From the NCBI GenBank assembly GCA_902826385.1, contig CADEEU010000003.1, positions 1 through 29,483 of the forward strand: a stretch of 29,483 nt of DNA. The letters are read 5' to 3'. The translations under genes and the position numbers were made by a program. Below, piece after piece: positions 15,071-19,386 of the stretch. Under the pieces are notes generated by a model, which saw only the letters and a list, made by a program, of their open reading frames with translations, was not told the origin of the DNA and made no database searches. This DNA comes from an uncultured Acidobacteriota bacterium. Lineage in GTDB: Bacteria; Acidobacteriota; Blastocatellia; Pyrinomonadales; Pyrinomonadaceae. Numbering within the stretch: position 1 is the stretch's first letter; the number at the start of each line of letters is the position of its first letter.

Positions 15071-16279
15071 CTATTCAATCATGTCCAGGACGGATGTGGG
15101 GTTTGTCGTTGCGGGCGGCGGAGGTGCCATCGGTGCCGGAGCGTTCATAGTTCCGCGGGCCTGGTTGACGTAATCCTCCGTGGAAGAAAGGCCTTTGAGC
15201 TGCAGCAGAAGATTGTTCTGGTTGGTTGCATACGACAACCCGTCTTCCAGCGAGATTTTTTTCGTTTCGATCATCCTGCGAATGACCGAATCGAAATCCT
15301 GCATGCCGTCGATCTCGCCGTCGCGAATAGCGTCAAGCAGCGTTTTGCCCTCGCTTTCACCCTTTTCAATATACTCACGCGTACGCGGATTGGATTTTAA
15401 TACCTCGACTGCGGCAATACGGCCCGAGCCGTCGCCTTTCGGGATCAAACGTTGCGACACGATGTAGCGGAACGTCTGTGCCAGACGCGTGCGGATAATG
15501 CGCTCTTCGTTCTTTGGATAAAGCCCAATGATACGGTCGATCGTTTTAGAAGCGTCGATCGTGTGCAGCGTAGAAAGAACAAGGTGACCCGTCTCGGCCG
15601 CTTCGAGCGCAATCTCGGCAGTTTCAAGGTCGCGCATCTCGCCGACGAGAATAACTTTCGGCGCCTGTCGCAAAGCGGCACGCAGGGCCGAGGCAAAATC
15701 CTTTGTGTCGGCACCGACCTCTCGCTGATTTATCGTGCTCTTTTTGTGGTTGTGCAGAAACTCGATCGGATCTTCGATGGTAACGATGTGATAGCTTTTC
15801 GTCTCATTGATGCGGTCAATGATCGCGGCGAGCGTCGAGCTTTTACCGGAACCGGTCGGACCGGTCAACAGGACGACGCCGTTTCGGATATTGGCAATAT
15901 CTGCGAGAGTGTCCGGAAGAGCGAGCGACTCAAAACTCGGAATCTCGTGCGGGATAACACGCATTACAATTGAGTACGAATTACGCTGCTGAAAAATATT
16001 TACACGAAACCTGCACTTTCCCGGCAAAGCATAGCTAAGATCGGCGGTCCGAAATTTTGCCAACTGTGCCGCCGCGTCCGCATTGTCGCGAAGTATCGAC
16101 ATCGCAATCATCTCAGTCTGGTAGGCGCTCAGACGGCCCAGGCCCAGAGGCGATGCGGAATAAAGCGTACCGTTGATTTCGACCTGTGGTTTTTGGCCAC
16201 AGGAAAAGTTCAGATCGCTGACGTTGTCGGACGTAAGCAGCATCTGCTCAATAATGGGTGCTACATCAAGCAAACTCAT
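15071..16279 (-). CDS. pilT: PilT/PilU family type IV pilus retraction ATPase
   Basis: Walker A GPTGSGKS, TIEDPIEF, LRQAPKVILVGEMRD and GHLVLSTLHT. Start reassigned to ATG 16279 after AGGAG. The AIRNLIRE motif is absent, so it may be PilU-like. Confidence 0.88.
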   Translation of the reverse strand: MSLLDVAPIIEQMLLTSDNVSDLNFSCGQKPQVEINGTLYSASPLGLGRLSAYQTEMIAMSILRDNADAAAQLAKFRTADLSYALPGKCRFRVNIFQQRNSYSIVMRVIPHEIPSFESLALPDTLADIANIRNGVVLLTGPTGSGKSSTLAAIIDRINETKSYHIVTIEDPIEFLHNHKKSTINQREVGADTKDFASALRAALRQAPKVILVGEMRDLETAEIALEAAETGHLVLSTLHTIDASKTIDRIIGLYPKNEERIIRTRLAQTFRYIVSQRLIPKGDGSGRIAAVEVLKSNPRTREYIEKGESEGKTLLDAIRDGEIDGMQDFDSVIRRMIETKKISLEDGLSYATNQNNLLLQLKGLSSTEDYVNQARGTMNAPAPMAPPPPATTNPTSVLDMIE

Positions 16280-16479
16280 TAGGTTGGGTGTCTCCTGGAC
16301 AGTTTCAACAAAGGCGGGATTGCGTTTGAAAACAGCTGGAAGCGATAGCTGTCTCGCTGAGATATTATTACCTAATAAATTCTGGAAATGCAAGCACTTT
16401 TTAACTGTGCAAAACTTTGTTAAGCGTTTACGGGACGACTTCGAACCACCTGGTATCTCAAAAAAACCGCCCTAATTCT

Positions 16480-16508
16480 TTGACACAATGGCGGTTTTTC
16501 CATAAACT
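16480..16508 (+). promoter_or_regulatory. sigma70 promoter of the rpmH-rnpA-yidD-yidC operon
   Basis: TTGACA-N17-TAAACT. Confidence 0.7.
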
Positions 16509-16536
16509 CAAAGTTTTCACTTTCGGGTGAATTTTA

Positions 16537-17094
16537 ATGGAGAGTAATTATGCCGCAGAGAACATTTCAACCGAACAACCGCCGCCGCGCGAAAAAGCAC
16601 GGCTTCAGGGCGAGGATGGCGACGAAGAACGGCCGGGCGGTGCTGAAACGCCGCAGGGCAAAGGGCCGCAAACGCCTGACAGTTCAGCATTATTAGACTT
16701 TTCGCTGCCAAAGGAAGCCCGGCTGCGCAAGCGTGCCGAGTTCCTTAAGGTTTACGAGCACGGAAAGCGCATTGAAGGCCGTTTTATGACGGTTTTCCTT
16801 TTGCCTGCTTCCGGCAGCCTCCATCGCGTCGGCATCACAGCCACGAAAAAGGCGATCGGCACGAAGGCGCATGACCGCAACCGGGCAAAGCGATTACTTC
16901 GCGAGGCGTTCCGATTAAGCCGGAACGAAGTGGATGCGATTGGCGTAAAGCTTGACTGGGTGCTGAACGCCAGACGAAATATTTTGAAGACAAAGCTCGC
17001 CGGGCCGCTGGAGGATTTCAGGGCGATAGCCGCAAAGGTGGCGAGATCGGCAGAACTTTTAGCCACAGAAGCTCCGAAGGAACACAGAACGTAA
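16537..17094 (+). CDS. rnpA: Ribonuclease P protein component (start uncertain; the only canonical in-frame start lies upstream of rpmH)
   Basis: [22 protein letters not shown] and the RNR motif [16 protein letters not shown]; position between rpmH and yidD. Confidence 0.9.
16550..16696 (+). CDS. rpmH: 50S ribosomal protein L34
   Basis: Hand-translated: [48 protein letters not shown], with a GGAG Shine-Dalgarno; too short for the ORF track. Confidence 0.97.
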
Positions 17095-17154
17095 ATTGAG
17101 TAATTTGCATTTGTGCATTACTTTCTGTGAACTCCGGCGTCCTCTGTGGCAAAA
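17057..17154. repeat. Imperfect inverted repeat (GCCACAGA...CACAGAA) overlapping the rnpA 3' end
   Basis: TTTTAGCCACAGA...CACAGAA at 17057-17089 faces TTCTGTG...TCTGTGGCAAAA at 17123-17154. Confidence 0.55.
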
Positions 17155-17166
17155 TTGCTTTAAAGG

Positions 17167-17376
17167 ATGAAATTTCTCGTGCTCGATCTGCTGGGTGTTT
17201 ATAAGGCGATGGTTTCGCCTTTTCTTCCGCCTGCGTGCAGATTTGAGCCGAGCTGTTCCGAGTATACAAAGCAGGCTGTCGAGAAATACGGCGCGCTTCG
17301 GGGAACCTGGATGGGCCTCAAACGTATATTACGCTGCCAGCCGTTTTGCAGCGGCGGCCATGACCCGGTGGAGTAA
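17167..17376 (+). CDS. yidD: Membrane protein insertion efficiency factor YidD
   Basis: CRFEPSCSEY...KYGA..G......RILRCQPF..GG.DPV. Confidence 0.95.
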   Translation: MKFLVLDLLGVYKAMVSPFLPPACRFEPSCSEYTKQAVEKYGALRGTWMGLKRILRCQPFCSGGHDPVE

Positions 17377-17457: not shown

Positions 17458-19386
17458 ATGGATCAACCAAATAATCAAAATCAGTCCCGTTTTCTGATCG
17501 CGGCAGTGCTGTCGATGGTCGTGCTGTTCGGATGGTCGTACTTTTTTGCTCCGACCAGGCCCGCGACGAATTCGAATACAACCAGCGCCGAGGTTGCGAA
17601 CGCGAACACCGGCCAACCACAGCAGACGCCTGCCGCTCCGGCTTCTCAGCCGACGCCGCCGCCCGTCGCCGCGACGCCTGACACCACGCCGAATCGGGCG
17701 ATCACAATAAAATCGCCATTATACGAAGTAACGCTCGATTCAAAGGGTGCGGTCGCGACAAGCTGGATATTGCTGAGAAACAGGACGCCGAAAAGCGATC
17801 AGCCGATATACGCCGACGGCTCGACCGGATCCGAAAAAAAGCCGCTGCAGCTTATTTCGCAAAAAGCGCTCGAGCAAAGCCCGCGTGAACTTCCCTTTCG
17901 CCTTTCTACCGCTGACCAGAACCTGACGACGCTTGCGAACGAGCGAAATTATCAAATCTCGGCCCCGGAAGAGACGATAACGCTGGCCGACGGTCAGGAA
18001 AAGCAGATCGACTTTACGCTGACCGACGCGAGCGGCGTCGAGGTTAAAAAATCGTTTGTATTCCGCGGCGACAGCTACATTTCCGACCTCGGGGTAACGT
18101 TCAAACAAAACGGACAGCCGGTTCCGAACACGCGTCTGGCCATCGGCGCAAGCATCGGCGACCACGCGATCAACCACCACGGGTTTTATCATATCGAGTC
18201 CGAAACGGTCGCGATTGTGAACGGCGATATCCTGCGGCACCAAGGCTATTACTCGTTTACCTACGACGCGAATAACCAAGCGTCGTTAGCCGATCAGGGC
18301 ACCGTCGATTGGGCGGGTGTGGGCGATGCTTATTTCGCCATGGCTGCGATTCCGGCCACTCCCCAGCAGGGCGTCGAGTATCGTGCCTTCAAATACGAAG
18401 TGCAGACGCAGCCGTTTTTCCCGAGCATTTGGAGCTGGGTGATCCGCAGCGCCCAAACGAAAGAGACGCGGCATCTTGTGACGGCGTTTGTCCCCGTGAC
18501 GACGGACGGAACGGTTACGAAGATCTTTACGGGCTCGAAAGACTATTTCCTGGTTTCTCACCTGGCGGATTCGCTGCGTGGAGCAGACGGCCGGCAGATC
18601 GACATAGTCAATTTGATCAATTTCAGCAACTATCGGATACTTCGATTTTTCGTCAAACCGCTCTCGATCCCGATTCTGCACGCTCTTCATTTTTTCAACA
18701 ACATAACGGCCAATTACGGGCTCGCGATCATCATCTTTACGTTCCTGTTTTATTCGCTCCTGTTCCCGCTGAGGTGGAAGCAGTCGAAGTCGTTCAAGAA
18801 AGCTTCGGCGAATGCACCGAAGATGCAGGAGCTGCAGAAGAAGATCAAGGACATGCAGGGAAAGGGCGTTCCGACGGACGACCCGCGGATGCGCGAGCTG
18901 CAAATGCAGCAGCTGCGTCTGACAAAGGACGCGTTGCCGATAGGCGGCTGTCTGCCGATGCTGCTGCAATTCCCGCTGCTGTTTGCTTTCTACACAGCTA
19001 TCTCGGTCGCTCTGGACGCTCGTCAAGCGTCGTTCATGTGGATTCCGGACCTGTCGGCGGCTGACCCGTGGCACTTGCTCGAATTCGGATTTGCGATCTC
19101 GATGATATTGGCGATGAAATTTACGCCGACCGCCGCCGCCGTGACACCCGAACAGCAAATGCAGCAAAAGATGATGACCTGGCTGATGCCGGTTATGATG
19201 CTGTGGGTAATGTGGACCGCTCCGGCCGGATTGCTGCTGTACTGGTTCTTTGGCAACATCGTCAGTTTTGGCCAGCAGATGATCATCAACCGGTTGAACA
19301 AAACCAACGAACCGCCGGCGGCCGAAGTGGTGGAGACTGTGCCGAAGAATGCAAAGAAGGTGAAGCCGAAGTTGAGCACCTCATAG
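17458..19386 (+). CDS. yidC: Membrane protein insertase YidC
   Basis: N-terminal TM, large periplasmic domain, NYGLAIII.T, GGCLPMLLQFP, DLSAADP and PAGLLLYW; start reassigned to ATG 17458. Confidence 0.96.
   Translation: MDQPNNQNQSRFLIAAVLSMVVLFGWSYFFAPTRPATNSNTTSAEVANANTGQPQQTPAAPASQPTPPPVAATPDTTPNRAITIKSPLYEVTLDSKGAVATSWILLRNRTPKSDQPIYADGSTGSEKKPLQLISQKALEQSPRELPFRLSTADQNLTTLANERNYQISAPEETITLADGQEKQIDFTLTDASGVEVKKSFVFRGDSYISDLGVTFKQNGQPVPNTRLAIGASIGDHAINHHGFYHIESETVAIVNGDILRHQGYYSFTYDANNQASLADQGTVDWAGVGDAYFAMAAIPATPQQGVEYRAFKYEVQTQPFFPSIWSWVIRSAQTKETRHLVTAFVPVTTDGTVTKIFTGSKDYFLVSHLADSLRGADGRQIDIVNLINFSNYRILRFFVKPLSIPILHALHFFNNITANYGLAIIIFTFLFYSLLFPLRWKQSKSFKKASANAPKMQELQKKIKDMQGKGVPTDDPRMRELQMQQLRLTKDALPIGGCLPMLLQFPLLFAFYTAISVALDARQASFMWIPDLSAADPWHLLEFGFAISMILAMKFTPTAAAVTPEQQMQQKMMTWLMPVMMLWVMWTAPAGLLLYWFFGNIVSFGQQMIINRLNKTNEPPAAEVVETVPKNAKKVKPKLSTS

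Follow-up and report, generated by a model that had tools for sequence, protein, structure and literature searches.

The stretch of DNA analysed here, referred to as the window, comprises 29,483 nucleotides of contig 3 of the metagenome-assembled genome of a soil acidobacterium of the Pyrinomonadaceae (3.7 Mb in 537 contigs, 86% complete). Within it, rpmH lies wholly inside the reading frame of rnpA and in a different frame, as in the nested genes of Thermus (Table 1). The identity of both products could be established by profile comparison. L34 matched PF00468 (Ribosomal_L34) with 81.4 bits (cut-off 25; 4.3e-23) over profile positions 2–44 of 44, and RnpA matched PF00825 (Ribonuclease_P) with 83 bits (cut-off 22.3; 2e-23) over profile positions 1–106 of 109. 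In an AlphaFold2 model the RnpA core (about residues 61–170) was predicted with a pLDDT of 94–97 and alpha/beta topology. Downstream, the frame runs into a bona fide RnpA core. Relative to rpmH, rnpA is read in the −1 frame (a frame difference of 2), which has no stop from position 16531 up to the TAA at 17092–17094. According to the window sequence and its list of open reading frames, the ATG at 16537–16539 is located 13 nt 5′ of the rpmH ATG at 16550, and it is the sole in-frame ATG, GTG or TTG before residue 15 of the RnpA core. A product beginning instead at the CTG at 16705 would have a calculated mass of 14.6 kDa. An earlier sequence-only reading of this DNA had already placed ATG 16537 13 nt before rpmH, in a frame open across that gene, and had derived from it a 185-aa protein with no other ATG, GTG or TTG ahead of the core; every positional detail was correct, and our re-examination of the reading frames gave the same protein.

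Downstream, yidD is followed by yidC, the reading frame that ends at 19386. The gene dnaA does not adjoin rpmH in the window. Divergent from rpmH, on the minus strand, is a 440-aa reading frame (15071–16393) containing the Walker A motif GPTGSGKS, which by this motif only resembles a PilT-type pilus retraction ATPase.

Table 1 Features of the rpmH/rnpA locus (window coordinates)
Feature	Coordinates	Strand	Evidence and remarks
Sigma-70-like promoter, TTGACA-17 nt-TAAACT	16480..16508	+	10/12 matches; sole match in region; 0.4 expected in shuffles
Inverted repeat TTCACT-TTCG-GGTGAA, possible 5′ hairpin	16516..16531	+	Arms conserved in relatives
Proposed rnpA start, ATG	16537..16539	+	−1 frame; conserved in genus
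rnpA, predicted long form, 185 aa + TAA, 20.6 kDa	16537..17094	+	Open reading frame, PF00825, AlphaFold2 core
Predicted RnpA N-terminal extension, 56 aa up to Pfam domain	16537..16704	+	16550–16696 dual-coding with rpmH
rpmH Shine-Dalgarno, GGAGAG	16539..16544	+	5 nt before rpmH ATG; within rnpA codons 1–3
rpmH, L34, 48 aa + TAG (16694–16696)	16550..16696	+	PF00468; entirely inside rnpA
CTG, Leu of LPKE	16705..16707	+	Homologous to TTG start of non-nested relatives
Ribonuclease_P (PF00825) domain	16705..17034	+	Residues 57–166
yidD	17167..17376	+	PF01809, 1.5e-28; conserved cluster rpmH-rnpA-yidD-yidC

To follow the upstream start among relatives, we used three sets of loci: 37 loci referred to as the genus set (27 species of the same genus code and 10 close, non-identical records), 103 loci that represent the family outside it (53 genera), and 16 genomes that represent the class outside the family (six families). 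These sets contain no locus from the unpublished genomes G057 and G182. The rnpA start just 5′ of rpmH was found to be conserved. Within the genus set, position −13 relative to the rpmH start begins an ATG in 33 loci and a GTG in the remaining four, with T at −12 and G at −11 in 37/37, and positions −14 to −18 vary freely. Among the other family loci, 50 have an in-frame upstream ATG or GTG at −16, −13, −10 or −7. In all, 84 family loci are nested, with the upstream start in the rnpA frame in every case; beyond the 37 genus loci, the 47 further nested loci carry it at −16, −10 or −7. As for ATGs of any frame between −25 and −4 of nested family loci, 75 of the 77 are in the rnpA frame. Nested members occur in 28 of the 54 family genera with data, and most genera are uniform in this respect. 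None of the 16 class outgroups possesses the upstream start. Since the outgroups are not nested, the arrangement arose inside the Pyrinomonadaceae, independently of Thermus, which supports the earlier suggestion of an independent case in another phylum.

We then considered how both starts might be read from a transcript. The −10 box of the promoter listed in Table 1 is conserved in relatives, and from its position we predict a transcript start near 16513–16516, which would place ATG 16537 on the mRNA. Four RNA runs compared at 80% likeness contained only short rpmH contigs of relatives or other organisms, with no 5′ ends. Directly after the predicted transcript start is the inverted repeat, whose arms, TTCAC and GTGA, show little or no variation across 69 family loci; the loop varies in length and complementary bases lengthen the stems. 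RNAalifold yielded 6 pairs for this repeat and no two-sided compensatory change. Folding of the window leader was no more stable than that of shuffled sequences (z = 0.78), and an Rfam scan of 16380–17180 returned no family for the leader. The repeat may stabilise the 5′ end as a hairpin, or serve as a regulatory element in the leader of rpmH. With no two-sided covariation and a leader of ordinary stability, occlusion of the Shine-Dalgarno sequence by this hairpin is a weak possibility. RNAfold additionally placed an outer pairing in most genus loci (for instance L004, L012 and L158; −45 to −6 relative to the rpmH ATG), between CUCUA of the −10 box region and the UGGAG found at both the rnpA start and the rpmH Shine-Dalgarno sequence. 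We dropped this pairing since it probably lies outside the transcript; it probably reflects the conservation of the Shine-Dalgarno and promoter sequences.

The Shine-Dalgarno elements of the two starts differ. The rpmH element overlaps rnpA codons 1–3, which encode the conserved N-terminus M-E-S; conservation at positions −10 to −6 ranges from 34 to all 37 of the genus loci. For rnpA, the sequence-only reading had proposed an SD-like GGTGA 6 nt before ATG 16537. Its position was confirmed (16526–16530); the same bases belong to the inverted repeat described above, as its 3′ arm, and their role as a Shine-Dalgarno sequence is putative. ATG 16537 is thus left with no clear, accessible Shine-Dalgarno sequence, and this counts against its use. 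Other nested family members have a sole Shine-Dalgarno sequence (GAGG or GGAGG) that abuts the upstream ATG at 0–3 nt, which is poor spacing for canonical initiation.

If the ribosome enters rnpA upstream of rpmH, the −1 frame must be free of stops across the whole of rpmH. When about 150 loci were checked for stops in this frame or loss of the start, the outcome favored the proposed arrangement: all 37 genus loci retain both [A/G]TG at −13 and an open frame, and the frame is open in 47 of the 50 other family loci with an upstream start. We compared these counts with what chance would provide. Among family loci with rnpA in frame 0 or +1, which had been selected without regard to stops in the −1 frame, this frame was open in 3/29, with a mean of 1.86 stops. 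It was open in 6 of 24 family loci with rnpA in the −1 frame and no upstream start, and in 4 of the 16 class outgroups. Back-translation of the window L34 with the genome's own codon usage (20,000 draws) gave an open −1 frame in 14.5% of draws; the average was 1.71 stops. The loci with rnpA in frame 0 or +1, the class outgroups and the back-translation are three independent nulls, and they agree that the frame is open by chance in 10–25% of cases. Long open frames elsewhere in the phylum are mostly high-GC chance occurrences accompanied by ordinary downstream starts. When upstream start and open frame were compared in independent pairs on a tree of the RnpA core, only 3 pairs fell on supported branches, too few for power.

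Since kin are not independent, we turned to individual substitutions. For a stop to occur in the −1 frame, a codon ending in T must precede one beginning with AA, AG or GA. At synonymous third positions of the genus loci, T was found at 0/338 sites where it would create such a stop and at 201/921 other sites. The critical sites are by no means frozen, as they vary among A, C and G; Thr25, for instance, is ACC in 18 loci, ACG in 12 and ACA in 7. By parsimony, with a tree inferred from DNA other than rpmH, at least 46 third-position changes fell in the always-critical columns, and none of these involved T, as compared with 44 of 121 changes in safe columns. The avoidance of T has a P of ~1e-9, which becomes ~1e-5 if the T rate is scaled by its genome-wide depletion in this context (0.179 before AA, AG or GA vs 0.290). 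We rejected TpA or context bias as the cause, because the genome-wide drop is just from 0.29 to 0.18 and non-nested relatives carry such T freely.

Neighboring codons co-vary so that T-AG is avoided: Phe19 is TTT in 16 of the 19 genus loci in which Arg20 is CGN and in 0 of the 18 in which it is AGG. Toward the 5′ end of rpmH, Asn9 is AAC in 37/37 genus loci, and the adjacent Asn10 is AAT in 6/37. Selection therefore extends back to at least codons 8–9, which points to a start upstream of rpmH and not inside it. The record of substitutions indicates that the overlapping frame is kept open by selection.

The most serious competing explanation is that rnpA begins after rpmH. The CTG at 16705 is at the position of the TTG initiator codon of non-nested relatives, and the sequence-only reading had offered a start at this codon, coupled to the rpmH stop, as its alternative. 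In the family, 51 of the 53 non-nested loci have a canonical start, mostly TTG, within a few codons after the rpmH stop, and loci without an upstream start have a stop in or just after rpmH. In the genus, no canonical in-frame start was found near the junction in 29/37 loci, and the codon corresponding to the CTG is CTG in 12, TTA in 9, TTG in 7, TTT in 3, CTT and CTA in 2 each, and TCA and CTC in 1 each. As 18 of the 37 loci thus have a non-initiator codon here, the CTG cannot be a general start, and the alternative fails in that form. Such scatter is the pattern expected of an initiator freed from constraint after a new start took over, and CTG 16705 is probably a decayed ancestral start.

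It could still be argued that only a short RnpA of ~129 aa is produced, by re-initiation at CTG 16705 after the rpmH TAG, the upstream ATG being unused. Termination of rpmH occurs 9 nt upstream of the CTG, and non-nested relatives have no Shine-Dalgarno sequence at their TTG and so must rely on coupling. The need for RnpA is also small, ∼1/130 of that for L34 in E. coli (PMC9945441), such that very inefficient re-initiation could suffice, and a few relatives apparently have no canonical start at all. However, this explanation accounts neither for the absence of T across rpmH, in sites as in substitutions, nor for the conserved [A/G]TG at −13, and it would have to work from TTA, TTT, CTT, CTA, CTC or TCA in nearly half of the genus. 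We regard it as improbable. Whether the CTG of this one genome is used as a minor start in addition to the upstream ATG is a separate matter; we consider such use unlikely yet deserving of some weight.

A further explanation is that ribosomes slip by −1 within rpmH, giving a fusion of the N-terminal part of L34 to RnpA, and that the frame is kept open for this purpose. The rnpA frame is indeed the −1 frame of rpmH, and most genus loci contain an AAA AAG pair at Lys15-Lys16 where slippage could be imagined. However, the avoidance of stops begins at codons 2–9, upstream of this site. Only 3/37 loci have an A immediately before AAA AAG, and Lys15 is AAG in 6, so there is no conserved heptamer of the dnaX type. 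Slippage also leaves the conserved in-frame upstream start without a role, and in two decayed relatives described below (L060 and L062) the last stop, at +83, falls after the Lys-Lys site. We rejected −1 frameshifting as the main route on the grounds that the avoidance of stops reaches upstream of the slip site and no heptamer is present, and consider it very improbable. Equally hard to credit is the explanation that the open frame is a functionless by-product of L34 codon composition and shared ancestry: the chance rate given above, six non-nested family loci with rnpA in the same frame that are open without an upstream start, and the kinship of the loci would allow it, but critical third positions changed repeatedly among A, C and G only, adjacent codons co-vary, and non-nested relatives with an almost identical L34 carry 1.7–1.9 stops per gene.

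Taken together, the conserved start at −13, the selection against stops throughout rpmH and the decay of the downstream initiator argue that RnpA is, with high probability, translated in its long form from ATG 16537. In this long form, the extension spans 53 aa up to the residues ALL, or 56 aa up to the Pfam domain. The sequence-only reading had described an acidic extension of ∼50 aa; this is true of the window, where its pI is 4.3, and does not stand as a conserved trait, since the pI across nested loci ranges from 4.1 to 10.8 (median 6.0). Codon positions 2 and 3 of the extension are positions 1 and 2 of rpmH codons. Third positions of rpmH changed with similar frequency in critical and safe columns (46 changes in 6 columns and 121 in 16, respectively), so the choice of residues in the extension shows no trace of selection, which acts against stops alone. 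AlphaFold2, run with an 84-sequence alignment, predicted residues 1–55 with a pLDDT of 43–51 and no secondary structure. Rather than a domain, the extension resembles a disordered leader that is tolerated.

We propose the following sequence of events. One mRNA, made from the promoter at 16480–16508, would give both L34 and RnpA. A ribosome starting at ATG 16537 would pass through all of rpmH in the −1 frame and into the RnpA core, and the 185-aa product would be an RnpA with a disordered extension of ∼55 residues dictated by the codons of L34. Since the two starts are 13 nt apart and a single 30S subunit covers both, the two initiations should exclude each other. rpmH would be served by GGAGAG at the ideal 5-nt spacing, and rnpA by, at most, the weak GGTGA inside the inverted repeat. 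The expected outcome would be much L34 and little RnpA, matching the known stoichiometry, and the same would hold in the other nested genera. The analysis establishes the anatomy of the locus, the conservation of the start and the selection that keeps the frame open; initiation at 16537, competition between the start sites and the resulting expression ratio are what we infer.

Relatives with and without nesting suggest how the arrangement could have come about. The ancestral state would be an rnpA beginning with TTG (or GTG or ATG) a few codons past the rpmH stop, a state that roughly half of the family and the remainder of the class retain. The nested lineage would have acquired an upstream ATG, after which the old TTG would have drifted to Leu or other codons, CTG in the window. 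The region upstream of rpmH reads GGAGA-ATA-ACTGACT-ATG in many non-nested loci and GGAGAGA-ATG-ACTGACT-ATG in nested loci (L080, L096, L112 and L117 versus L068, L076 and L084 in our comparison); at the start codon a single base, ATA vs ATG, distinguishes the two states.

Decay of the nested state can also be seen in the family. L060 and L062 (genomes G160 and G069) have kept the ATG at −10 and have 3–4 stops in the frame. In L057 (G130) the ATG is lost and a stop is present at +5, and L064 (G070) has ATC where its relatives have ATG at −10. We looked for a canonical rnpA start in the open part of the frame of these four loci and found none. A search of the four genomes for protein-only RNase P (PF08745) was likewise negative, with a positive Thermus control. 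Four loci with neither a canonical start nor a protein-only enzyme point to a non-canonical rnpA start in the family, which could also operate in the window; unconventional rnpA initiation may therefore exist in this family. Outside the family, three high-GC Acidobacteriota loci of family code f26 (L162, L163 and L164; genomes G221, G321 and G179) have GTG or TTG at −7 in the rnpA frame, and this frame is open; in L162 and L164 no canonical start follows downstream. Nesting may have arisen a second time in the phylum, independently, in this family.

A broader scenario can be drawn from these observations, and we offer it as possible rather than probable. Nesting would be a recurrent, convergent solution and not a peculiarity of Thermus. 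In the Pyrinomonadaceae it would have begun with a TTG-coupled ancestor, proceeded through the one-base gain from ATA to ATG and ended in decay of the old start. Two mutually exclusive sites 13 nt apart would fix the ratio of L34 to RnpA, and the start-less members would represent further unconventional initiation.

The nested, decaying and non-nested states found within one family constitute a natural series for studying the migration of a start codon. The same series serves for the dual-coding constraint on a ribosomal protein gene and for the production of two essential proteins at very different levels from one initiation region. There is also a consequence for annotation, as gene callers miss rpmH or mis-call rnpA in these genomes.

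The closest known system is the nested rnpA/rpmH pair of Thermus, reportedly described in 2003 by Feltens, Gossringer, Willkomm, Urlaub and Hartmann, who are said to have demonstrated the long protein experimentally by protein chemistry. Our literature search found no nested rnpA/rpmH pair reported from phyla other than that of Thermus. Two later papers describe rpmH within rnpA of Thermus as the only bacterial case described (PMC9841429, 2022; bioRxiv 10.1101/520783, 2019). In both systems rpmH is wholly inside rnpA in another frame, the layout is conserved among relatives, and the RnpA extension is encoded by the DNA of rpmH. In both, too, the rnpA start is just 5′ of rpmH and in the same −1 frame, at an offset of 4 nt in Thermus and 13 nt here. 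The two differ in their start geometry. In Thermus the AUGs form 5′-AUGGAUG-3′ and are said to share one GGAGG Shine-Dalgarno sequence (PMC9841429). Here, the GGAGAG of rpmH comes after the rnpA ATG, and rnpA itself could draw on no more than the weak, separate GGTGA; a Shine-Dalgarno sequence shared by both starts is absent from the window and its genus, and other nested family members have a single one upstream of both starts. The present case also differs in belonging to the Acidobacteriota, with an independent origin, and its long RnpA is predicted from comparative evidence.

The canonical rpmH-rnpA operon of E. coli, B. subtilis and non-nested Pyrinomonadaceae, in which the rnpA start is weak and translationally coupled, has the same gene order, rpmH-rnpA-yidD-yidC, and a low level of RnpA relative to L34 is expected in it as well. 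The non-canonical starts GUG and UUG have been described as typical for rnpA (PMC9945441). Unlike the canonical operon, the window has no canonical start after rpmH, its overlapping frame is kept open by selection, and a conserved ATG precedes rpmH. A further parallel is provided by the ambiguous start sites AUGUG and GUGUG of E. coli, for example those of pqiA and tamA, the latter with two Shine-Dalgarno sequences for two starts (PMC9841429). As at those sites, the starts of two frames are found here in one ribosome footprint and would partition initiation between two reading frames. At the E. coli sites, however, the two starts share 2 nt and the alternative reading frames are short, whereas 13 nt separate the starts in the window and each reading frame encodes an essential housekeeping protein. 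Judged by comparative evidence, the locus is a Thermus-type nested arrangement with a different start geometry, which evolved separately in a large clade of soil Acidobacteriota; the principle itself is known.
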